42,292 nucleotides of DNA, taken from Pyrinomonadaceae bacterium (GTDB lineage: Bacteria > Acidobacteriota > Blastocatellia > Pyrinomonadales > Pyrinomonadaceae). Below the pieces are notes generated by a model that saw nothing but the letters and a program-made list of their open reading frames with translations, was not told the DNA's origin and made no database searches. The stretch's first letter is position 1. Every line of letters starts with the position of its first letter. The stretch covers positions 1 to 42,292 of the forward strand of contig DASUPR010000210.1 of the NCBI GenBank assembly GCA_036281015.1, in the 5' to 3' direction. Position numbers and translations under genes: made by a program. Below, in pieces: positions 9,889 to 20,991 of this stretch.

Positions 9889-9968
<80 letters not shown>

Positions 9969-10058: not shown

Positions 10059-10964
10059 TCAGTAGGTGAAGACTGGTGTTAACCACCATTTTTGACTCCG
10101 ACTATCAGCCTCAGACATCTGTCTAATGCCTCGTTCGGTTTCTGCCATGTATCGTCCGCTATGTTTGGCGCGCAGTTTGTAAGAGCAGTCTTTTTGGAGC
10201 GCCAAGGCCCATTTCTGATTTTCTCCGTTTTGAAACTCCCACTGATGGATCTTCGCCTGTTCCGCGGTTGAGTTGCCTTCCACGTCTATGCACTGACCCG
10301 TATGCGAGGACACGATGGCGTAGTATCGTTTCTCGACTTGATGGCAGTACCAGATCTCCTGTTCCTCACCGGAATAATTACCCACCTCGAGTAGTTCGCC
10401 ATTCTTGTGTGGTACGCCCAATGCTCGAAGAACGGTAAGTGTTTTGACATTGATAAGATGGAATGCTTGAGCACTGGCTGGTGGGCCCACCGGCTTGGCC
10501 TTGCTCTTGAGTCTCGGCTCCAGGTCAGGCCACCACTTCTCGAAACTCCGACGAATCTGTTGGCCAGACAGGACGATTTCACTTGCGGCGTTCAATGACC
10601 TTATCAATTCCTGCGTCCCCTTTTCATCAGCCTTAGCAGCTTGGAAAAACCACAACGGTTGCGGCAGATCCTCGGGCTCCATGTCTATCAGGTAGGGACA
10701 AACGGCTGCGTTTTCTAGAACCTTGGAAAGAGCTCCTGCCTCGAACAATACCCACGGTTTGATACAGTTGTCTTTTGTTAAGCAAAGAATACCGAAGTTG
10801 CTCTTTTCAAGCTCCGAGCGAAGGACGTGGACCGACTCCTTTCCTTTCTCGATATCGCTTGAAATAAATGGGACCACCGAGTGAATCACGTCCGGAAGCC
10901 AATCTTTTAACGCTTCAGCAACTTCTTTGCTTCTCGGACCAGACCAGCCTATAAACACTTTCAT
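10059..10964 (-). CDS. TIR domain protein fused to a C-terminal ricin-B-type (beta-trefoil) lectin domain
   Basis: The N-terminus (MKVFIGWSGPRSKEVAEAL..DWLP..PFISSDIEKG...ILCLTKDNCIKPWVLFEAGAL) matches the bacterial TIR layout, including the W-x-x-E catalytic-Glu motif. The C-terminal ~130 aa has QxW-type repeats (IHQWEF, NQKWAL, SQKWWL). GAGGAGG lies 5 nt upstream of the ATG at 10964. Confidence 0.75.
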   Translation of the reverse strand: MKVFIGWSGPRSKEVAEALKDWLPDVIHSVVPFISSDIEKGKESVHVLRSELEKSNFGILCLTKDNCIKPWVLFEAGALSKVLENAAVCPYLIDMEPEDLPQPLWFFQAAKADEKGTQELIRSLNAASEIVLSGQQIRRSFEKWWPDLEPRLKSKAKPVGPPASAQAFHLINVKTLTVLRALGVPHKNGELLEVGNYSGEEQEIWYCHQVEKRYYAIVSSHTGQCIDVEGNSTAEQAKIHQWEFQNGENQKWALALQKDCSYKLRAKHSGRYMAETERGIRQMSEADSRSQKWWLTPVFTY

Positions 10965-11018
10965 CACAACCTCCTCATCATTTGTTGGGCCTCCGAACTA
11001 AGAAATCTCGCCGCAGGT

Positions 11019-13964
11019 TCATCGTCTCCTAGCCACCCTCCGGAACTTGGCTATTCGGCCCTCCTTTTTCAAAATGGCACCCAACGTTTCATTTATTTCC
11101 TTTGCTGTTTCCTCTTCTGTTTTTTTTATATTGTCAGAATTAAGCTCAGCAATACGTCGCCGAACTTCTGCATCAATATTGGTTGCACGGCAGCTTCTGG
11201 CATCCTCAGGTTCAGAAATAAGGTGATATAGGTATTCGTTTAGCAACTCCTGACTGTACCGCTTCACGGTGGTCCAGCGTTGGTGATAAGCCGCTTTTGA
11301 AAAACTAGAACCGTACACACCAATACCTGTCTTCAGAAACTTCTCAAACGAGGATTTGGAGGTGCGGGCTTTGAGCTGAGGCGACAACCAACGGCATAAC
11401 GATAAGATTGCCAGGTACGGCCACTTCGCAGTTTGTTGGGCAATCATCCGATGGCATTCCTGCGCTTCCTTGTTACTGAGACGCGCCTTTTTTAATTTTT
11501 CATCCAACTCGCCAATCGCAATTGCCATACGACTCATGAAGTCCGGATAGACCACTGGTATCGACGCATCAATTCTGCCCTTTCTAATCAATGCAGAATC
11601 GATGTTCTCCACATAGTTTGTTGCCAGGACAAAGCAGAGTTCCTGCCGCGGGCAAGCGCCGCGCAGATCAGCTAATCGATTCAACATTGCAGGGACCACC
11701 AAATCCATGAATCGGGGACGCTCGCCGTCGAGATTTCGTTGACGTAAGAGGTCATCGATCTCATCAAAGAAAATGGTGACTGCTCGAACACCGGTTATAA
11801 GATCGAAGATTGCGCGGGCCTCTGAGTCAAGACGATCTTCGCCCATACGAGTAAAATCAGCCGGAGTAATTCGTATGAGCCGGTTTTCTCGTGGTCCCCA
11901 CCGACTACCGAACTTCCACATTTCAGCAGACAGCGCTTCGGCTAACTTGGTCTTGGACGAGCCGGGTGGTCCATGCAGCACGAGAGAATACTCCGCAGCT
12001 GAATGCGCGTTCTTTGCTCGATAAGTCATCTGCTCCAGCCGGCGATGGAGACGCCTGCTGTGCTCGGCTCCCAGATCAACCGGATCTATTTCTCGTAGTG
12101 GTTTATCTATAGAGGCAACAGAAAAGCGCTTCTTACAGAGTTCCCAGAGCCGATACTCGACCAGATCACGGATTTGTAGTAATGCGTTGATCGAATAAGC
12201 AGTGGTGCCGAAGTGAATTGTGCGGCGATCTCTCAGCCGCTCCGAGGCCCAACCGACATACTCACGCGACAGAGCTTTACTTGCATCAGACTCAGGGGCA
12301 TTAGTAGCTTGTAATTTTATTTGGGTGCGCTCTAACCAATCGACGAAATTGAAGAACTCTTTATCTGCGTCCTTAACTCCAGGAAACTGTTCTATCGCGC
12401 TAGTTAGAGTGCCGACTATGTCGGAGGTAGCGGCCCAAATGCCAAATGCATGATCGGGAGAATAAAAAGGCTTGCCTGACCGCCAGCTTCCATCCTTACG
12501 CGCTCCGGCAATCGCTTTGGTTACCGCGTCAGAAACCTGAAGCGACGTGGACATCAGGTTCCAACCGACCGCGACTGCAATGGCGCTAACCAACTCACTC
12601 GGATCGAATTCAGTAAAGTTTTGCGCGCTAGCATGAGCAATCTCGCGATCTACGACGTTTCGACACCAGAGTGCAGCGGGTAGAACCGGCTTGTTCAAGA
12701 CATCTTTAACTTTTCTGTTTGCGGAAGCGAGTTCTCTCAGCGCTTTGTTAATACGCCGCTGAAGTCTTGCGGGACCAGCTAATCCCTTGACAGGGAGATC
12801 CGGGCAAATTTTGCAGGCGGCCTTAAGCTCCCCTAGAGCATTCTCGCAATATCCAATACTTTCGTGCGCCGCGTCGGCCAGGTATTTCCAGTAATCGCTG
12901 TCGCCAGTGTGTTCCTTCGCGAACCGTAACATCAGTGGCCTTTTGTTGAGCGAATCGTCCAGCTTGGCCCTGTCTCCGGAGCGAAATGTGTTTCTTTCGT
13001 TGGTCCTGAGTGGTTCGAGTATGTTGGTCTTAATGCGCTCTACAACGGCACTTGCATCTTCGAGAACTTGCTTGGAAGTATCTCTAATTCGTTTGAGCGC
13101 AACCTCAAGAGATCCAAGGATCTTGTCGTAAGTGGCCCTAGGATCGTCAGTTGTTGGTAACTTTTGAATCGCTCTGGCACAGTTCTGAAAAGCCTTTTGA
13201 TCGATGGATAGCTGAGATAGATGTGAGAGATTCGCGCATAGATCGTCAACTTCAATATTGAATAACCAACGGTGCTTTGGATTGTTTCGATCGCGATTTG
13301 CTTGAAGTTCGGCTAGCTTGGCGAGATTGCGTGCGACGTCATCGTAAAGCCGGGTGCGCTCCTCGATAATTCTTTGCAAATCTCTAATAGGCAGCAGGCA
13401 TTTCGCTGTCACATAAGCAGTAACCTCCCAGGGTTCTATGCGGGCACCAACCGTTAATTGACTGGGGAAGCGGCGGCATAACGGCCAGATGATGGAGAAG
13501 AAGGCCAGAAAACCTATTCCGCTGTGGGCGTTCCTTTCACCAGCGTTCAGCAGAATGCGAAAAACTTGTGAGGCCGTCAAAGGATTTAGACCACCAAAGG
13601 TCTTACTATCAAGGAGTCGAGCGCATTGGTCGAACCCAAGACGCTTTGGCACATACCTTCCCGCGAGCTCTCTACGGACCTCTTTGAGTTGCCCGATCGA
13701 TGCGTTATTAAGCCACGAAAAGCGGCGTCGGAAACGCCACACCTTTTGTAAGGTGGCGCAGCAGACTGCCTGCGTCAGACGGCTGTCTTCCTCTATTGTT
13801 TCGAGTTCCGGCGAGAACCAGGTCGGAATACTTCCATGCTCCGCGATCGAGATCAAACTCTTGACAGGTCCTTCAACGATCTTGTCGATCTGTCTTATGC
13901 GGGCCAGGTAGAGCGATGTCTCTTCGTCGAGATTCGTTGTGGGAGTCGGTATATTCTGTGACAT
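11019..13964 (-). CDS. Large (981 aa) protein: ~650-aa uncharacterised N-terminal region plus one classical-clade AAA+ ATPase module and a helical tail
   Basis: Walker A GPPGSSKT (11949..11972), Walker B IFFDEIDD (11751..11774), and second region of homology VLATNYVENIDSALIRKGRID. I moved the start to the ATG at 13964 (MSQNIPT..) because AAGGAGG sits 7 nt upstream; the track's 14081 start has no such site. Confidence 0.8.
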   Translation of the reverse strand: MSQNIPTPTTNLDEETSLYLARIRQIDKIVEGPVKSLISIAEHGSIPTWFSPELETIEEDSRLTQAVCCATLQKVWRFRRRFSWLNNASIGQLKEVRRELAGRYVPKRLGFDQCARLLDSKTFGGLNPLTASQVFRILLNAGERNAHSGIGFLAFFSIIWPLCRRFPSQLTVGARIEPWEVTAYVTAKCLLPIRDLQRIIEERTRLYDDVARNLAKLAELQANRDRNNPKHRWLFNIEVDDLCANLSHLSQLSIDQKAFQNCARAIQKLPTTDDPRATYDKILGSLEVALKRIRDTSKQVLEDASAVVERIKTNILEPLRTNERNTFRSGDRAKLDDSLNKRPLMLRFAKEHTGDSDYWKYLADAAHESIGYCENALGELKAACKICPDLPVKGLAGPARLQRRINKALRELASANRKVKDVLNKPVLPAALWCRNVVDREIAHASAQNFTEFDPSELVSAIAVAVGWNLMSTSLQVSDAVTKAIAGARKDGSWRSGKPFYSPDHAFGIWAATSDIVGTLTSAIEQFPGVKDADKEFFNFVDWLERTQIKLQATNAPESDASKALSREYVGWASERLRDRRTIHFGTTAYSINALLQIRDLVEYRLWELCKKRFSVASIDKPLREIDPVDLGAEHSRRLHRRLEQMTYRAKNAHSAAEYSLVLHGPPGSSKTKLAEALSAEMWKFGSRWGPRENRLIRITPADFTRMGEDRLDSEARAIFDLITGVRAVTIFFDEIDDLLRQRNLDGERPRFMDLVVPAMLNRLADLRGACPRQELCFVLATNYVENIDSALIRKGRIDASIPVVYPDFMSRMAIAIGELDEKLKKARLSNKEAQECHRMIAQQTAKWPYLAILSLCRWLSPQLKARTSKSSFEKFLKTGIGVYGSSFSKAAYHQRWTTVKRYSQELLNEYLYHLISEPEDARSCRATNIDAEVRRRIAELNSDNIKKTEEETAKEINETLGAILKKEGRIAKFRRVARRR

Positions 13965-14363
13965 TCTTGCTCCTCCTTGAGTGGGAGAATTCAAGCGAGT
14001 GTGCAGGTAAGCAGAGGCTCGTGAGAGTACAGACTGTCGTCTGAACGCGGGGACAATATTCTTGTCTTTAAGAAAAGTCAACGCCGAATTGACTTGTGTA
14101 AAACCCCAAGTTGAAATGTCACCCGATTGCGCAAAGTAAAAATCTCACCTACTTGCAGGATACAAAGCTCACCGCGGCGTTCGTTGGCCATGTGCGTCTG
14201 CAACAATCTGTTATTATTTCTTCCATTGAGCGTGTCCCAGGGAAGCATTGCGACTAGATGTGCTGAGGAGAATGTAAATTGAAACCTAACAGCAGGGTTC
14301 ACCCCATCGTCGTGTGACCAATTTGTGGACACAATTTTTTCGACTCGCAAAGCGCGATGCTTA

Positions 14364-14399: not shown

Positions 14400-14651
14400 A
14401 TGAGAACTACCGTTTCAACAAAGGGTCAGATCATCCTTCCGGCTGAGATTCGGCGTGAGGATGACATCAAATCCGGACAGGAGTTTGAGATCGAACGGAT
14501 CGATCGCGGTGAATACCTCCTCAAGCGAACGACAAAACCGCGAAATAAAGGGCTTGTAAAACTCTTACTTTCATGCCCCGTGAAGGATTGGTTCCAACCA
14601 CTAGAGCGCACCGAAACCACTGATGACATTAAGCTGCCTAAGCTCGGATGA
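14400..14651 (+). CDS. vapB: AbrB/MazE/SpoVT-family antitoxin (VapB-like)
   Basis: 83 aa. MRTTVSTKGQIILPAEIRRE is the swapped-hairpin AbrB-type motif. Overlaps the PIN gene by 4 nt. Confidence 0.85.
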   Translation: MRTTVSTKGQIILPAEIRREDDIKSGQEFEIERIDRGEYLLKRTTKPRNKGLVKLLLSCPVKDWFQPLERTETTDDIKLPKLG

Positions 14652-15055
14652 TCTACCTTGTTGATGCAAACGTGCTTAGTGAGCCGACGAAACAGGCGGC
14701 CGACAGCAGGGTTGTCATGTGGCTCAATGCAAACGAATCCAATCTGATCGTTGACTCGATAATAATTGGCGAACTGCGAATCGGCATTCTTGCGCTACCG
14801 CGCGGACGCAAGCGTGATCGGCTCGAACAATGGTACGCAACGGTGGTTGAAACGATAGATTGCATTCCATGGGATGCAATGATAAGCCAACGATGGGCAG
14901 CTCTGGTTGTGGAGTTGAAACGAAAGGGAGAGACCGTACCACTGCTTGATGGAATGATTGCCGCAACCGCTCTTCAACATGACCTGATCGTTGCCACACG
15001 TAACACTCGCGACTTTCAAAAAACAGGCGTGAAAACGTTGAATCCTTTTGAGTGA
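14648..15055 (+). CDS. vapC: PIN-domain ribonuclease toxin VapC
   Basis: 135 aa. MIYLVDANVL (first acidic residue), ..SIIIGELRIG.., ..DGMIAATAL.., ..LIVATRNTRDF.. give the typical VapC layout. Confidence 0.88.
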   Translation: MIYLVDANVLSEPTKQAADSRVVMWLNANESNLIVDSIIIGELRIGILALPRGRKRDRLEQWYATVVETIDCIPWDAMISQRWAALVVELKRKGETVPLLDGMIAATALQHDLIVATRNTRDFQKTGVKTLNPFE

Positions 15056-15096: not shown

Positions 15097-15117
15097 TCGA
15101 ACCCTCTCGCCCCGACC
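15097..15117 (+). repeat. Direct repeat copy 2 (attR-like): displaced 3' fragment of tRNA-Pro
   Basis: TCGAACCCTCTCGCCCCGACC matches 20 of 21 positions of tRNA-Pro 9947..9967. Weaker resemblance extends upstream (AGCCTGGT at about 15063 versus the D-loop AGCCTGGT). No foldable tRNA remains. Confidence 0.75.
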
Positions 15118-15339
15118 GATTAGAGTCTCCTGCGACACCAATCTCCACTAGCCTCCTCCACGAAACAACGCCGCCTTATTGACTCCGCGCTTCGTTTTGT
15201 AATAAGTATACGCACCTCGCTTTCCATCAAGCCGGCCGCATAGACGGTGATCTCGTGATCCGATGTTCAATAAGCCGTCTTTTGACTCACGGGGTCTCAT
15301 ACGAATTCAAATCGCGCGACTCACTAAGGAGAGAAATAA

Positions 15340-15642
15340 ATGGACTCTACCCACCGTGAAAAAGAGACCTTTCAGTACGAGGACTTGCTGATTTGTTATG
15401 AGCGAGTGGAGCCATTATCCATGGGAGGGGGCGGCGGCGGTGGTGGTGGCGGCCCAATTTCCCCGAAAGGCGGCGGCAAGGGCGGTGGCAAAGGCGGAGG
15501 CGGCGGCAAGGGCGGAGGTGGTGGCAAGGGCGGAGGTGGTGGCAAGGGCGGAGGTGGTGGCAAAGGCGGAGGTGGTGGCAAGGGAGGCGGTGGTGGCAAG
15601 GGAGGCGACGGCCCAATCAGTACTATCTCCATCAGATCGTAA
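15340..15642 (+). CDS. Gly/Lys-repeat peptide; candidate RiPP precursor (leader-like N-terminus plus a G10..(G3K)2(G5K)6 core)
   Basis: AAGGAG lies 8 nt upstream of the ATG. Sequence: MDSTHREKETFQYEDLLICYERVEPLSM-G10-PISPK-GGGK-GGGK-(GGGGGK)x6-GGDGPISTISIRS. Co-directional with the YcaO gene and 36 nt upstream of it. Confidence 0.6.
   Translation: MDSTHREKETFQYEDLLICYERVEPLSMGGGGGGGGGGPISPKGGGKGGGKGGGGGKGGGGGKGGGGGKGGGGGKGGGGGKGGGGGKGGDGPISTISIRS
15487..15606 (+). repeat. 18-bp tandem repeat (about 6.7 copies), in frame, encoding GKGGGG units
   Basis: The units at 15505..15522, 15523..15540 and 15541..15558 are identical (GGCAAGGGCGGAGGTGGT). Flanking units differ by 1-4 nt. Confidence 0.95.
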
Positions 15643-15678
15643 CCGCGACGATTAGCCCGTGGCCCCCGAGAACAGCGC

Positions 15679-17040
15679 ATGCCAGATCATCAGGTAAGGT
15701 CTTTATCGGACCTCTTCAATCGACCTCCTTTTTACTTAGCAGGCGCTTTTCATATTCATCCGAAGATTTCTTCTGTCTTACGACGAATTATTCGGGTTCC
15801 TCACCGCTATGCGTACGTTTATTCGTGCTCGGTTACGGATGAACAGTTGTCGGCGCTGCAACCGAAAGCGGGATTTGAGAGCGTCCTCGAGGGACAAGGC
15901 TGTTCGATAGAAGGTCCTTTGGAAGCGACTTTGATCAGCGTCTACGAAGCGACCGAGCGTCTCTTCAGCCTCCATGTCGACACCGCTGCACTTGTCAGCG
16001 GTTCATTCGTCGATCTCCAACCTTCTGCCGTTCATCCGGGAGAGTTCATATTGCCGCGCACATGGGAGTACGAACAGTGTTCCTACCCTTATGTTCGTTA
16101 CCGCGATACGTTGAAACTGCACTGGCTTCCCTGCTACCAAATTACAAAAGACGAGTTGATTCCGCGCTTAATCCCTGCCAGCCTGGCAGTGACGGGATAT
16201 TCGTTGCAACATGCGGCTGAACGATTTGTTCCGATCTTATCCACAGGTTTAGCTGCAGGCACTCGACTGGCCCAAACGATCTTGAGAGGCATTTATGAAG
16301 TTGTAGAACGTGATGCGTTCATGATTACCTGGCTCAACAGACTTTCATGTCGACGCTTGCAAGCTCAGTCAACCTCTCTGCCCGTTGGAGATTCATTGAG
16401 CCAGCTCTTCGAAGACGGGTTCTCAGTTGATTTTGTTGACCTTACAACCGATCTGGGAATTCCCGTTATCCTGACCGTTATTGAGCATCGTGTTCCGGAG
16501 CTTAAACCTAACGGCTCTAAGATCTTCGGACTGGGTTGCCACCTCAATCCGGAACGAGCACTAGTGAAGTCTTACATTGAAGCCCTACGCTTATTGCTCA
16601 ACTACTACGAGTTTGACGAAGACGATGAATTGAATGTGCGGAGAGTTGATCTTTACTCCGAGAATCGGTTTTTTGACGAGAGTTATTTTCAAAAGACCGA
16701 CTTCCTGAACGAATCGGAAGAGTTTGTGGAGCTCGAGCAAATGTCTGCAGATCGCGCTGCCGACGATTATGAGAGTGAGTTGCGCGCTTGCCTTACTGCT
16801 TTGAATGGTAAAGGAGCAGATCTCTTTTTCGCCGACTTCACTCCAGAGGAACTGCGTGATGCGTCTTATTCCTTAACGCGGGTGTTCATCTCAAAAATGC
16901 AACCACATCTTTATGAGCACGATTTTTGGAGGCTGGACAATCCGCGCATTACGGCTGCGCCAGTGGCAATGGGATACCGTCAGGTTCCTCTTAATGAGAA
17001 GGATCTCAATCTCTTGCCGAACCCTTTTGCACTCCGTTGA
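15679..17040 (+). CDS. YcaO-domain protein (ATP-dependent backbone amide-activating enzyme)
   Basis: 453 aa. Motifs ..GQGCSIEGPLEATLISVYEATERL.. and ..LSTGLAAGTRLAQTILRGIYEVVERDAFMITW.. match the YcaO core pattern. The Pro-containing C-terminus (..LLPNPFALR) resembles the PxPxP tail of active YcaOs. No obvious SD. Confidence 0.8.
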   Translation: MPDHQVRSLSDLFNRPPFYLAGAFHIHPKISSVLRRIIRVPHRYAYVYSCSVTDEQLSALQPKAGFESVLEGQGCSIEGPLEATLISVYEATERLFSLHVDTAALVSGSFVDLQPSAVHPGEFILPRTWEYEQCSYPYVRYRDTLKLHWLPCYQITKDELIPRLIPASLAVTGYSLQHAAERFVPILSTGLAAGTRLAQTILRGIYEVVERDAFMITWLNRLSCRRLQAQSTSLPVGDSLSQLFEDGFSVDFVDLTTDLGIPVILTVIEHRVPELKPNGSKIFGLGCHLNPERALVKSYIEALRLLLNYYEFDEDDELNVRRVDLYSENRFFDESYFQKTDFLNESEEFVELEQMSADRAADDYESELRACLTALNGKGADLFFADFTPEELRDASYSLTRVFISKMQPHLYEHDFWRLDNPRITAAPVAMGYRQVPLNEKDLNLLPNPFALR

Positions 17041-17048
17041 GAATTCAA

Positions 17049-17870
17049 ATGGCCGATCGTTTTCATCGAGAAGGACGAACACTGCAAGGTCGCGTCGCAC
17101 TGGTGACCGGTAGCGTCGGTGATGGAATAGGCCGCAGCACGGCACTCGCACTCGCTAACCTGGGAGCTGATGTCGCACTTAACTACGGCACTGGCCGCGC
17201 ACAGGAAGAGGTCGAGTCCAACGGCAAATGCGTGCAGGCGGCGATCGAGGAAATGGGATCGCGTTCCGTGCTTATCCGCGCTAATACCGGAGATGAACAA
17301 GAAGTCATCAGTCTCTTTCAACAAATACGGAAGGATTTAGGAAGCGTCGACATCCTCGTTAATAACGCCGGCAGCGTGTGGTTGGAACAAGACTTCGCCG
17401 ACATCTCAGCCGAGAGATGGGAACGAACGATTGCCGCGGAACTAAATGGCGCCTTCTACTGTATGCGCGAGGCTTTGCCCGCAATGAGGGAAAAAAGGTG
17501 GGGGCGCATCATCAATATTGTCGTTGATCCTACTTCACTTAACCTTCTTATAAATGCCCAGTATGGGCACGTTCTCGACAAATACCCACATGCCTTCGCT
17601 GTCGGCAAGGCGGCGAGAAAATCTTTGACCCACACTCTCGCCTTTGCCGAGTTAAAAAACAAGATCACTATAAATAATATCCTCCCAGGCATTATCGAAG
17701 ACATTAGCCTTGATGAAGCAATCCGTGACGCCACTACTGACCCCGACACTAGAGTCGCTACCCGACCATCAGATGTTGCGCGAGTTATTGCCTTCCTGTG
17801 CCTGGAGGAAGGCGGCGTTATTACCGATAGTGACATAGTGATACCGGGTAACCTCTATTCGCGTCTCTAG
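17049..17870 (+). CDS. Short-chain dehydrogenase/reductase (SDR) family protein, atypical active site
   Basis: Rossmann motif ALVTGSVGDGIGRSTALALANLGADV and NNAG are present. Where S...YxxxK is expected the sequence reads IINIVVD ... FAVGK. The ATG at 17049 is preferred over the TTG at 17037. Confidence 0.7.
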   Translation: MADRFHREGRTLQGRVALVTGSVGDGIGRSTALALANLGADVALNYGTGRAQEEVESNGKCVQAAIEEMGSRSVLIRANTGDEQEVISLFQQIRKDLGSVDILVNNAGSVWLEQDFADISAERWERTIAAELNGAFYCMREALPAMREKRWGRIINIVVDPTSLNLLINAQYGHVLDKYPHAFAVGKAARKSLTHTLAFAELKNKITINNILPGIIEDISLDEAIRDATTDPDTRVATRPSDVARVIAFLCLEEGGVITDSDIVIPGNLYSRL

Positions 17871-17906
17871 GACACCTGAGTCAGGTCGGCAAGGAACAGC
17901 AGCAAC

Positions 17907-18989
17907 ATGGGACTATCACTGCCAGTTCTTCAAGATCCAAAGAAGAAGTACTCGCGCTGTCCCGGCAGCACGCTTTGTCCGTCATGCCCGCTCTTTGTCG
18001 AAAATGAAGGCCCATGCTCCGGATGCACCAATAGCTACCGCGAACGTTGTTTACAGGGCCGTTGTTATTCCCGCTGCAACCGATGCGGCGGCGGATTGCA
18101 TGCGGTCGTGCCCGCGTCTTGTGGTCGTTCACCACTGCGTGATGAATGGGCCAAGCTAATCCTGCCGCCGCTTAAACGTTATCGTCCGGCGCCTGTAGAC
18201 ATCTCGACTCCGTTGATTCCGGTAATCTATTGCCAGAAGGACGCTCGGCATATTCCACGGAAATTTCCACACATTGACGCCTGGGCCATACCTGTCCACA
18301 AGGCTATGAACTTGAAAGGAAGATTTCGTTCGGCAGACATGAAGGATTATCTGGGACTGATGCCCGGTCAGAAACTGATTCTATCAACTGCCGGGCCGGA
18401 TGATTTCATGGAGTTGCTTTGGGAGAAAGGTGATTCGTTTGACTATCGGAAGCATGGCTTCGATTACTGGTTTCCCGCCCACTTTTCAGTCTATGACAAC
18501 GATAGTAAGTTCTATCAGTTCTTTAATGCGCGGCGTCAGCAGATTCACGCTCGCAAGTGCAAGAGTCAGTTTGTGTGGTTTCGACTCGGCGAACACATTC
18601 CCGTCAGTTGGCTTGGGCCCATTCGAAACTGTCCGTCAGTATTGATCTCGTGCCAGCAGATGTACCAAAAGTTCAATAAGGAGTTATTAGCTCGAGAGAT
18701 GTCAATTGCCGACAATCTGTTCCCCTTGACGACAGACTTTTTTCTGCTGGGGTCAGGCTACGGTATCCCCATTCGTGACGGCCGCAGAGTTCACGAGATC
18801 CATTCACGCTGGATAGTCGGGGCCCTCAAGGGATATGACATAAAACATGTTCCTCATCCACGACTAAGTCGACGGCAACTTCTTTCGCGAAATCTACGAG
18901 AACTTTACCTGGCAGTTTCCAAGCGGCGAGTAAAGGATTCCAGTAGCGGCGGGAAGCAGCGTGGTGAGAGAACCAGGCAAGTGGGATAA
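17907..18989 (+). CDS. Cys-rich protein of unknown function
   Basis: 360 aa. The N-terminal ~60 aa hold 13 Cys (CPGSTLCPSCP..CSGC..C..C..CNRC..). The remainder has no motif I recognise. Same strand as the SDR gene, with short gaps on both sides. Confidence 0.6.
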   Translation: MGLSLPVLQDPKKKYSRCPGSTLCPSCPLFVENEGPCSGCTNSYRERCLQGRCYSRCNRCGGGLHAVVPASCGRSPLRDEWAKLILPPLKRYRPAPVDISTPLIPVIYCQKDARHIPRKFPHIDAWAIPVHKAMNLKGRFRSADMKDYLGLMPGQKLILSTAGPDDFMELLWEKGDSFDYRKHGFDYWFPAHFSVYDNDSKFYQFFNARRQQIHARKCKSQFVWFRLGEHIPVSWLGPIRNCPSVLISCQQMYQKFNKELLAREMSIADNLFPLTTDFFLLGSGYGIPIRDGRRVHEIHSRWIVGALKGYDIKHVPHPRLSRRQLLSRNLRELYLAVSKRRVKDSSSGGKQRGERTRQVG

Positions 18990-19010
18990 ATCGATCTTTG
19001 GAGGTGAGGC

Positions 19011-19268
19011 ATGAAGTGTGTGGCGTGCGGAAGTACCGCGCTTGTCGAAGGGACGTTGATGGATATTTCAAGTGGATTCAAGCCGAAGGAGTATTCCGAT
19101 TTGAAAAGTATGCTCGGCATTGGCACGCGCGAAGTCCGCGCCTATGGCTGCATCCACTGCCAGCACTTGCAACTCGCCGTCAGCTTTACCGAGAAGGACT
19201 TACAGCGTTACCAGCAGTTTGAAGGCGAGCAACCGGGTGTACTGGAACGAATAAACTCAGAGCCGTGA
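19011..19268 (+). CDS. Small zinc-ribbon-like protein
   Basis: 85 aa. MKCVACGS...GCIHCQH gives a CxxC...CxxC arrangement. A strong GGAGGTGA lies 4 nt upstream of the ATG. Confidence 0.6.
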   Translation: MKCVACGSTALVEGTLMDISSGFKPKEYSDLKSMLGIGTREVRAYGCIHCQHLQLAVSFTEKDLQRYQQFEGEQPGVLERINSEP

Positions 19269-20553: not shown

Positions 20554-20901
20554 GCCCCTGTAGCTCAGCGGATAGAGCATCTGCCTTGTTGGAGCCTTGA
20601 TGGGGAAAGTCTGGAACCCATTAAGTGGACGACCCTGTATGCGGGGACGCCCTGAGAGCCTCCGGTACTTCGCTCGTTTCGAAGTAAAAATCCGTGAGGA
20701 TTGGGTAATCCGCAGGAAACCTTTAGTCGCAAATCGTAAAACGCGGCGTCGATAAGGGATCCTCAGAGACTATACGGGTCGGGACTGAGAGGTCCAAGAT
20801 ATAGTCCAGCCAGCAACCCCAGCTTTGACGGGCGGTCAGGGAAAGCCTGATGCTGGAAGCTAAGCAGAGGGCCGCAGGTTCGAGTCCTGCCGGGGGCACC
20901 A
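20554..20901 (+). tRNA. tRNA-Arg (anticodon TCT) interrupted in the anticodon loop by a group I intron
   Basis: Joining the 5' exon (20554..20587, GCCCCTGTAGCTCAGCGGATAGAGCATCTGCCTT) to the 3' exon (20860..20901, CTAAGCAGAGGGCCGCAGGTTCGAGTCCTGCCGGGGGCACCA) gives a 76-nt cloverleaf. Its anticodon loop is CTTCTAA. As I recall E. coli tRNA-Arg(UCU), it closely resembles that sequence (..CCUUCUAAG..GGGCCGCAGGUUCGA..). Confidence 0.8.
20588..20859 (+). ncRNA. Group I intron (IC3-like, tRNA-anticodon-loop type), about 272 nt, with no internal ORF
   Basis: The 5' exon ends in U and the intron ends in G. Conserved R/S elements ..CAGAGACTATACGG.. and ..AAGATATAGTCC.. form P7 (GACTAT at 20768..20773, ATAGTC at 20801..20806). 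The 5' region TTGGAGCCTTGA..TTAAGTGGA resembles cyanobacterial tRNA-Leu introns as I recall them. A P1 helix is possible between exon CCUU and GGGG at 20602..20605. Confidence 0.75.
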
Positions 20902-20913
20902 CATCAAGAATAT

Positions 20914-20991
<78 letters not shown>

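Follow-up and report, generated by a model that had tools for sequence, protein, structure and literature searches.

Does a YcaO enzyme act on a peptide made up largely of glycine and lysine, and if so on which part of it? The question is raised by positions 15340–19268 of a 42,292 nucleotide (nt) stretch of DNA from a Pyrinomonadaceae bacterium (contig DASUPR010000210.1), the whole of which was analyzed and is termed the window here. A sequence-only reading of this DNA described five co-directional open reading frames (ORFs), which include a YcaO gene and are headed by a Gly/Lys repeat peptide of 100 amino acids (aa), as a candidate undescribed system resembling those of RiPPs (peptides made ribosomally and then modified post-translationally). 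The coordinates of the five ORFs, all on the plus strand, and the letters of the peptide are confirmed. The core of the idea, a RiPP-like YcaO system not described before with a Gly/Lys peptide at its head, also holds. The locus is a conserved, rare and unannotated cassette. The explanation favored here, tentatively and with somewhat less than even confidence, is that this is a new RiPP-like cassette in which the YcaO and an adjacent short-chain dehydrogenase/reductase (SDR) modify the C-terminal tail of the peptide, and in which the Gly/Lys array belongs with a Cys-rich enzyme. The features of the locus are as follows (window positions).

15167–15339, plus strand: upstream non-coding region (putative promoter and 5′ leader), with the ribosome-binding site (RBS) AAGGAG at its 3′ end
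15340–15642, plus strand: peptide gene, precursor-like, 100 aa, recognized as an ORF and by five independent homologous versions
15340–15423, plus strand: leader of the peptide, aa 1–28, MDSTHREKETFQYEDLLICYERVEPLSM, with the conserved core F-[QR]-Y-E-D-x-x-I-x-Y-E in alignments
15424–15468, plus strand: Gly10 run (aa 29–38) and Pro/Lys hinge PISPK (aa 39–43); poly-Gly of 7–11 residues in all versions
15469–15609, plus strand: variable Gly/Lys array, aa 44–90, (G3K)2 (G5K)6 GGD, with a tandem repeat at 15484–15602
15610–15639, plus strand: conserved tail GPISTISIRS, aa 91–100, candidate modification site from the alignment of YcaO-linked versions
15679–17040, plus strand: stand-alone YcaO, 453 aa (PF02624)
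17049–17870, plus strand: atypical SDR (PF13561 and PF00106), 273 aa if counted from ATG 17049, in an ORF open from TTG 17037
17907–18989, plus strand: Cys-rich protein, 360 aa, with a 10-Cys N-terminal region and a (beta/alpha)8 barrel
19011–19268, plus strand: zinc-ribbon mini-ORF, 85 aa, a co-directional neighbor outside the conserved cassette

Intergenic distances, in the order peptide, YcaO, SDR, Cys-rich protein and mini-ORF, are 36, −4, 36 and 21 nt. The peptide gene displays a strong RBS, AAGGAG, located 8 nt ahead of its ATG, and those of the enzyme genes are weak. All SDR homologues begin at the Met that matches ATG 17049, 9 nt past the YcaO stop codon; from these alignments ATG 17049 is most likely the SDR start, and not TTG 17037.

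DNA homology with locus L095, the closest full relative, covers exactly positions 15167–18943 of the window at 85% identity, and the flanks are unrelated. Judged by this alignment, the conserved unit is approximately 170 nt of upstream DNA followed by four genes, those of the peptide, the YcaO, the SDR and the Cys-rich protein (window ~15167–18943). The zinc-ribbon mini-ORF had been read as a member of the operon. It lies outside the unit, since the homology with L095 stops at 18943 and other genes are found in its place, a second SDR in L095 and an integrase in locus L005. Similarity of the mini-ORF to the small ORFs that follow other Cys-rich genes was not found, and together with the homology end this rules it out as a conserved partner. 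The second SDR of L095 (positions 11122–11853, 243 aa), which follows the Cys-rich gene there, is unrelated to the first. Neither the mini-protein, the Cys-rich protein nor the peptide has a match in Pfam, NCBIfam, PHROGs or PADLOC, and no family for the peptide is present in Pfam or NCBIfam.

About 95 nt of the upstream region (window 15167–15260; L095 7287–7380) are near-identical in the two loci and more conserved than the coding regions. The same element is retained in a decayed copy of the cassette (L090, positions 462–536). It may be a regulatory element. A search of 15167–15339 shows no Rfam family, Pfam match or consensus sigma-70 promoter. An antisense mini-ORF overlaps the element (window 15148–15300, minus strand) and has a shared motif, KRGAY[TS]YYKTKRGVNK.

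The peptide consists of the acidic 28 aa leader MDSTHREKETFQYEDLLICYERVEPLSM, then G10, PISPK, (G3K)2 and (G5K)6, and ends with GGDGPISTISIRS, i.e. GGD followed by the tail GPISTISIRS. At the DNA level the array repeats an 18-nt unit in tandem, 6.6 times and with 92% matches. Five versions of the peptide were compared: that of the window; L095/L096 (YcaO identity 87%, peptide of 83 aa); L001 (75%, 75 aa); L005/L002/L010 from a Blastocatellia metagenome-assembled genome (MAG; 65%, 72 aa); and P0154, which comes from a protein search (82 aa). Chain lengths thus span 72–100 aa. All five have a leader of the FQYED type, a run of 7–11 Gly, a Pro/Lys hinge, a Gly/Lys(/Ser) array and the tail. The length and the unit of the array differ in each lineage (G2K, G3K, G4K, G5K, GGSK and GGSGGS), and the hinge in other versions reads PAPPK, KPPK, GPKPGK and so on, where GPIS is not kept. 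The tail follows the pattern P-I-[S/T/A]-[T/A]-[I/V]-S-I-R-[S/G] across the five versions and is followed by the stop codon; Pro92, Ile93, Ser97, Ile98 and Arg99 are invariant in the YcaO-linked versions and position 96 is Ile or Val. Past the leader, hydroxyl residues are limited to two or three Ser/Thr in the tail (S94, T95 and S97) and an occasional Ser in some arrays, and there is no Cys.

All intact close loci with upstream sequence at hand have a homologous small ORF 11–59 nt ahead of the YcaO gene. The proposal that such an ORF would accompany the YcaO is therefore borne out in the window, L095/L096, L001 and L005/L002/L010. Between the window and L095 the leader codons show seven synonymous and four non-synonymous differences, with synonymous changes in the tail as well, and the Gly codons are GGC-rich in the window and GGT-rich in L001. 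The synonymous changes and the differing Gly codon usage indicate that this reading frame is the one under selection, rather than the Ala/Val-rich or Pro-rich frames that overlap it. By these comparisons the peptide ORF is considered a real gene and not a chance product of low-complexity DNA. The locus displays what is expected of a RiPP precursor beside its enzyme, that is, a co-inherited small ORF in which a recognition part and a candidate core are both conserved. The exact peptides are absent from a collection of 15 billion proteins. Among 1.84 billion representative proteins, searched exhaustively with a profile, P0154 alone was found, and a search with a trimmed alignment gave the same protein. 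The peptide family is effectively missing from protein databases.

The assignment of the second gene to the YcaO family is confirmed by PF02624, which it matches at 184 bits (cutoff 25.7) over profile positions 8–324 of 325. The ATP/Mg motifs S87-x2-E90-x2-E93-R94 and E207-x2-E210-R211 are intact, and no change at E90, E93, R94, E207, E210 or R211 is seen among 27 homologues. Of the NCBIfam models TIGR03604 (SagD, thiazole/oxazole maturase) ranks first, matched over its full length (8–377 of 377) at 213 bits; TIGR03266, the model for the YcaO of McrA-glycine thioamidation, gives 69 bits against a cutoff of 365. The nearest PDB sequences are the YcaO halves of MusD, LynD and TruD, with MJ1094 and the M. 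kandleri YcaO as second-tier matches. An AlphaFold2 (AF2) model, predicted with a pLDDT of 85.3, superposes best in Foldseek on LynD (TM-score 0.74) and MusD (0.73), and thioamide YcaOs, E. coli YcaO and McbD (~0.53) rank lower. Azoline-forming D proteins have a Pro-rich C-terminal motif of the PxPxP type. In the window YcaO and its homologues an invariant C-terminal L-P-N-P-F aligns with the terminal P-M-P-F of LynD and is followed by three more residues (ALR). The YcaO is closest to the azoline-forming branch, closer than to the thioamide enzymes.

The usual partners of YcaO proteins had been reported missing, and this is upheld: Pfam scans of the larger ORFs in the 42 kb detect no E1-like/ThiF, TfuA or nitroreductase-type FMN dehydrogenase gene. 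An E1-like/Ocin-ThiF partner, or any other with a RiPP recognition element (RRE), is absent in L001, L005 and L095 too. The N-terminus of the YcaO was considered as a built-in RRE and rejected, as residues 1–25 are predicted to be disordered in the AF2 model and the remainder is YcaO fold. The slot adjacent to the YcaO is occupied by the SDR, and the FMN-dependent azoline dehydrogenase (B protein) is absent from the cluster. Relatives of this YcaO are few: 33 matches in 5.8 billion clusters, about 11 of them close, and none found in IMG/VR. A profile scan of genome contigs gave one close locus, L010, which is on the same contig as L005. The 79 others are generic YcaOs of 22–32% identity, and their loci have no SDR adjacent to the YcaO, no Cys-rich gene and no Gly/Lys ORFs.

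The SDR matches PF13561 at 122 bits and PF00106 at 116 bits, and its best NCBIfam matches are TmpR and FabL. The Rossmann motifs TGSxGxGIG and NNAG are invariant in its homologues, as are Asp164, Tyr183 and Lys191; an 11-residue insertion carries the invariant Tyr183-Pro184. Adjacency of YcaO and SDR is kept from 87% down to 45% YcaO identity. At the lower end is a sister clade (YcaO identity 44–48%) of two-gene YcaO-SDR operons, represented by L003 6877–9307, L004 3777–6207 and L094 5929–8487, where SDR identity is 51–52%. The YcaO of this clade has an N-terminal extension of ~80–120 residues with two predicted membrane helices. None of these three loci has a Gly-rich ORF or a Cys-rich gene, and unrelated housekeeping genes flank them. 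Neither a motif search aimed at diverged peptides nor a tblastx comparison of two of the loci found anything conserved beyond the YcaO-SDR pair. Gly/Lys ORFs, which the sequence-only reading proposed to look for ahead of other YcaO homologues, are present in the intact close relatives with upstream DNA and none is seen in the ~45% clade. The most distant member of the YcaO clade (38% identity) is found in a Peregrinibacteria contig (L093 1539–3982), which ends inside the YcaO gene; two GNAT-like acetyltransferase ORFs precede it and the second overlaps the YcaO start.

The Cys-rich protein was taken at first for an accessory specific to the YcaO. It belongs instead to a family of more than 145 matches (40%–90% identity) spread over Acidobacteriota, Aminicenantes, Nitrospinales and WOR-3; all are unnamed and most are stand-alone. 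At ~50% identity the gene is found alone (L006/L007). The AF2 model (pLDDT 90.6) predicts an N-terminal Cys region and then a (beta/alpha)8 barrel. Ten conserved Cys are located in a 55-residue span, residues 18–72 (window 17907–18150), and a plausible role of the cluster is to bind Zn or Fe-S. It includes C53-x3-C57-x2-C60, which is the radical-SAM spacing but belongs to a separate N-terminal region, ~45 residues ahead of the barrel's first strand. Radical_SAM (PF04055) matches none of 61 family members even at E ≤ 1, and no other Pfam match occurs in the 61. Assignment as a radical SAM enzyme or a transposase was rejected, having no support in Pfam, PHROGs or PADLOC. There is no sequence match in PDB. 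Fold matches are weak overall (TM 0.42–0.46, E 6e-4 to 3e-5), the best being to a tRNA-guanine transglycosylase (TGT) in PDB (E 6e-4, TM 0.42) and to unnamed or TGT-like phage proteins (E 3e-5, TM 0.44). Relatives were not found in IMG/VR, plasmids or phages.

Which part of the peptide goes with which enzyme is suggested by locus L097, from a Thermoanaerobaculia MAG. This locus has a Cys-rich gene of 67% identity and neither YcaO nor SDR. Located 38 nt upstream of the Cys-rich gene is an ORF of 80 aa, whose RBS (GAGGAG) is strong and whose Gly codons are mixed. Its sequence, MEELVYGEPRSGLEFTWPRWA-G10-SKQGKGGKGGQGGSGGSGGGSGG-REPKGDHNDDKFDDLQGLPLEGGVRA, contains a Gly/Lys array and aligns, with Y13, E21, P92, R99 and the Gly run retained, as a diverged member of the peptide family. 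The leader does not have the FQYED core and the tail, LPLEGGVRA, is without any Ser/Thr. Since L097 has both the Cys-rich gene and the poly-Gly and Gly/Lys part, with no YcaO or SDR, that part would go with the Cys-rich enzyme. The comparison, made at one locus, is suggestive of a division in which the FQYED leader and the hydroxyl-bearing tail go with YcaO-SDR and the Gly/Lys part with the Cys-rich enzyme. Taken as a whole, the cassette resembles two modules fused together, one of YcaO and SDR and one of peptide and Cys-rich enzyme.

The sequence-only reading had offered, as possible chemistries, oxazoline formation at the flanking Ile-Ser/Ser-Thr sites or activation of Gly backbone amides, and described two GPIS motifs bracketing the Gly/Lys array. 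The first GPIS is not conserved and the tail alone is invariant among YcaO-linked versions, which points to the tail as the YcaO target and not the array; persistence of the array in L097 without YcaO/SDR agrees with this. The comparisons decide neither for nor against the related idea that Lys residues form amidines, which the strict use of Lys (33 Lys and 0 Arg in the arrays of the five versions) keeps alive.

In the mechanism favored here the peptide gene would be translated strongly, and the stand-alone YcaO would bind the leader directly, with no RRE or E1 partner, and would spend ATP on activating an amide of the tail backbone. Cyclodehydration of Ser97 and of the neighboring Thr95 or Ser94 to (methyl)oxazoline would be the likeliest reaction. 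The SDR would then carry out NAD(P)(H)-dependent redox chemistry on the product, either reduction of C=N or, alternatively, oxidation of a hydroxyl residue. The poly-Gly and Gly/Lys segment may serve as a flexible cationic spacer, the poly-Gly being comparable to the G10 linker of McbA, and the Gly/Lys array would be tied functionally to the Cys-rich metal-binding TIM-barrel enzyme and not to the YcaO.

Several known systems share parts of this arrangement. Bottromycin YcaOs are stand-alone and RRE-independent, recognize the peptide directly, and carry out chemistry that is more than plain azole formation (thiazoline and macroamidine). Bottromycin precursors have a follower peptide and one Cys, and the pathway has other partner enzymes, with no SDR and no Gly/Lys array. 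The likeness lies in a YcaO without an E1/RRE partner. The cyanobactin and muscoride heterocyclases LynD, TruD and MusD are the best YcaO-domain matches and share the ATP/Mg motifs and the C-terminal P-x-P-F. However, they are fusions of ~750 aa with an N-terminal E1-like/RRE half that binds the leader, whereas the window YcaO is 453 aa long and has no RRE. YcaO-TfuA systems (McrA thioglycine and thioamitides) likewise act on backbone amides, including those of Gly, but here there is no TfuA and the TIGR03266 score is far below its cutoff. As to the Cys-rich protein, TGT and DpdA give its best, though weak, fold matches and are zinc/Cys-containing TIM-barrel enzymes. They differ in showing no sequence similarity to it, and the TGT zinc site is C-terminal where the Cys cluster here is N-terminal. 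No queuosine or 7-deazaguanine genes are found near the Cys-rich gene.

The closest likeness in precursor design is to microcin B17. McbA has a leader, a G10 linker and then the core, and its processing depends on the linker length (PMC6722960). The McbA leader is ~26–28 aa, a run of ~10 Gly precedes the processed region, the core is Gly-rich, and the YcaO McbD is ATP-dependent. Here, however, the core has no Cys and only 2–3 Ser/Thr, McbB (E1-like/RRE) and McbC (FMN dehydrogenase) have no counterpart, and McbD is a distant structural match. The long Gly/Lys array, the SDR and the Cys-rich TIM-barrel protein are further differences. SDRs of the ElxO type are tailoring enzymes of lanthipeptides and reduce the N-terminal 2-oxoacyl group that arises from Ser/Thr dehydration (PMC10783134; PMC8120280). 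They resemble the present case in being SDRs (adh_short_C2 type) that tailor a ribosomal peptide. The present SDR differs in that there is no lanthionine machinery, in being paired with a YcaO, and in its lack of the canonical Ser/Tyr. In the searchable literature these N-terminal oxoacyl reductases are the only SDRs in RiPP pathways. The cassette lacks defining features of the thiazole/oxazole-modified microcins and linear azol(in)e-containing peptides: there is no E1/RRE partner and no FMN dehydrogenase, and the curated hidden Markov model cutoff is narrowly missed. The core is almost without Cys, Ser or Thr. The cassette is not described in the searchable literature, which takes in few subscription-journal papers, so that a prior description is possible.

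A number of points weigh against the favored mechanism. The TIGR03604 score is narrowly below the curated cutoff (213 vs 219.25). YcaOs of the SagD azoline type normally need an E1-like/Ocin-ThiF partner with an RRE, of which there is none in the 42 kb, and the YcaO model is itself without an RRE or winged helix-turn-helix domain. In the SDR the catalytic Ser and Tyr are replaced, NISS reading NIVVD and YATTK reading FAVGK when aligned to the FabG and HBDH structures, and an SDR acting on azolines has no precedent in the searchable literature. YcaO-SDR pairs occur without the peptide in the ~45% clade, so the substrate of the pair need not be this peptide. The number of hydroxyl residues in the tail is small (2–3), the strict use of Lys in the array has no explanation in this model, and the subtraction argument depends on the single locus L097. 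No protease, exporter or immunity gene is present in the conserved unit. The evidence is computational throughout. It shows directly what genes are present, how they are conserved and co-inherited, the families of the enzymes and an intact ATP site; leader binding, the site of modification, all of the chemical steps and the role of the Cys-rich enzyme are inferred from it.

A more far-reaching form of the proposal appears doubtful. Here amide activation or azoline formation by the YcaO, followed by NAD(P)H reduction, would give an oxazolidine, a reduced amide, a ring derived from an amidine or a peptide aldehyde at the C-terminus. Such backbone chemistry would be unprecedented, on a new class of precursor whose poly-Gly/Lys segment is the substrate of a new Cys-rich metallo-TIM-barrel family.

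Of the competing explanations, the one that survives best, although still unlikely, is that two independent modules are located side by side. The peptide would then serve the Cys-rich enzyme only, and the YcaO-SDR pair would act on a protein or small molecule encoded elsewhere. Each half does occur without the other, i.e. peptide and Cys-rich gene without YcaO/SDR in L097, and YcaO-SDR without peptide or Cys-rich gene in L003, L004 and L094; the Cys-rich family is large and mostly stand-alone, and no RRE is present. Independence does not, however, account for the FQYED leader and the Ser/Thr tail, which are found only together with YcaO-SDR and are both altered in its absence. Over 65%–87% YcaO identity the genes keep their order and short gaps and form a single DNA unit with shared ends, and a peptide gene directly ahead of a YcaO is the standard arrangement for a substrate.

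It is still less probable that the chemistry takes place in the array. The YcaO would activate Gly amides, the Lys epsilon-amines would form amidines or a sulfur donor would give thioglycines, the SDR would reduce the product, and the tail would be a recognition or export element only. The 33 Lys and 0 Arg in five versions suggest that Lys matters, given that AAG to AGG is one transition. Gly amides are known substrates of thioamide-branch YcaOs (with TIGR03266 and MJ1094 as weaker matches), and the SDR, by its TmpR and FabL matches, resembles SDRs of the enoyl-/C=N-reductase type. One would expect an enzyme that forms rings to require a fixed spacing, however, and neither spacing nor unit is conserved. 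Moreover, the array persists in L097 without YcaO/SDR, TfuA or another sulfur-delivery gene is not found in the 42 kb, and the YcaO is closer to azoline-forming than to thioamide enzymes.

Processing of the C-terminal end is very unlikely. In this scheme the YcaO would phosphorylate the Arg99-Ser/Gly100 amide and SDR hydride or water would cleave it, leaving a polycationic carrier that ends in an argininal (a warhead like that of leupeptin) or in a trimmed acid. Just one residue, small and variable (S or G), comes after the invariant Ile-Arg, MusD (7u58), for which an ATP-dependent peptidase activity is deposited, is among the closest YcaO relatives, and the SDR is a plausible hydride donor. 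But L097 keeps a [V]-R-A end without YcaO/SDR, so the feature is not YcaO-specific, and the invariance of Ser97 and of a hydroxyl at 94/95 is left unexplained. Reductive cleavage of a YcaO-activated amide has no precedent in the searchable literature, and the scheme is pure inference. Finally, a chance open frame in a GC-rich tandem repeat, with a YcaO that has no dedicated peptide, might be suspected from low-complexity DNA that is open in several frames and from the absence of the peptide in protein databases, but is effectively refuted by the conservation of leader and tail in this frame in five lineages with synonymous changes, by Gly codon usage that differs by lineage, and by the strong RBS and fixed place 11–59 nt before the YcaO.

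The cassette with tail-directed YcaO and SDR, as favored here, is found in a lower-GC stretch between tRNA-Pro and tRNA-His, and the setting fits that of an accessory, horizontally moving cassette. It starts 50 nt past the second of two att-like repeats.

9947–9967 and 15097–15117, no strand assigned: att-like direct repeat of the tRNA-Pro 3′ end, 20/21 nt identical
10059–10967 (minus strand), 11019–14081 (minus strand) and 14400–15055 (plus strand): genes of the segment between the repeats, with a fusion of a TIR domain to lectin repeats of the ricin-B type (Pfam TIR_2 and RicinB_lectin_2; PADLOC “TIR-TM”, E 6.6e-54)

The repeats bracket a 5.1-kb segment that has defense-type and toxin-antitoxin genes and no integrase. 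Also in this segment are a 1020 aa AAA+ ATPase with weak IetA/IteA-like matches and a MazE/PIN toxin-antitoxin pair. The segment beside the cassette is a small defense-like island, and the arrangement resembles islands placed in tandem at a tRNA site. A second hint that the cassette occupies integration hot spots comes from the Blastocatellia MAG, where phage-like genes and a tyrosine integrase start 98 nt past the Cys-rich gene (L005 9193–10452 and L002 3564–4769, both minus strand). The Cys-rich gene itself may move. In a WOR-3 genome (L008 3251–5753 and L009 339–2772) an EamA transporter gene is split into 193 aa and 96 aa pieces by ~1.6 kb that contain a Cys-rich family member of 45% identity and a 97 aa Lys/Pro-rich zinc-ribbon ORF. 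The split gene suggests that the Cys-rich gene is able to move as a small insertion. No terminal repeats were found around it.

Decay of the cassette is also seen. L090 (positions 1–1960) and L091 have a deletion-decayed copy with the same outer ends, composed of pieces that correspond to window positions 15176–15253, 15776–16632 and 18438–18928. These are the upstream element, a YcaO remnant of 310 aa and, from the Cys-rich gene, its 3′ third; everything else, including the peptide gene and the SDR, has been deleted. The cassette can be dispensed with, and some lineages are losing it. An in-frame stop codon and a 5-nt deletion are present at the 3′ end of the L092 peptide gene and represent either decay or a contig-end error.

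Downstream of the cassette a tRNA-Arg(TCT) is located at 20554–20901 (plus strand), with its anticodon loop interrupted by a 272-nt group I intron, and is detected by ARAGORN in intron mode only. The Rfam Intron_gpI match at 20581–20822 (38.4 bits, E 9.7e-8) is below the gathering score of 50. The ORFs listed over 20554–20901 are spurious because this intron-split tRNA gene is located there. A tRNA-His (20915–20991) follows directly.

YcaO proteins are the main known route to activation of peptide backbone amides, and each new partner (E1/RRE, TfuA and hydrolase-like proteins) has so far brought new chemistry. A YcaO stably paired with an atypical SDR, with no RRE partner and with conserved nucleophiles only in a 9-residue tail, is a test case that can be cloned as 3.8 kb. 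It could turn out to be categorically new if the YcaO-SDR chemistry proves unprecedented. Two unannotated families are brought up by the cassette, i.e. a precursor peptide nearly absent from databases and a widespread Cys-rich TIM-barrel protein. Should the product prove bioactive, uncultured Acidobacteriota would be the source of a polycationic Gly/Lys peptide whose C-terminus bears a modified warhead.

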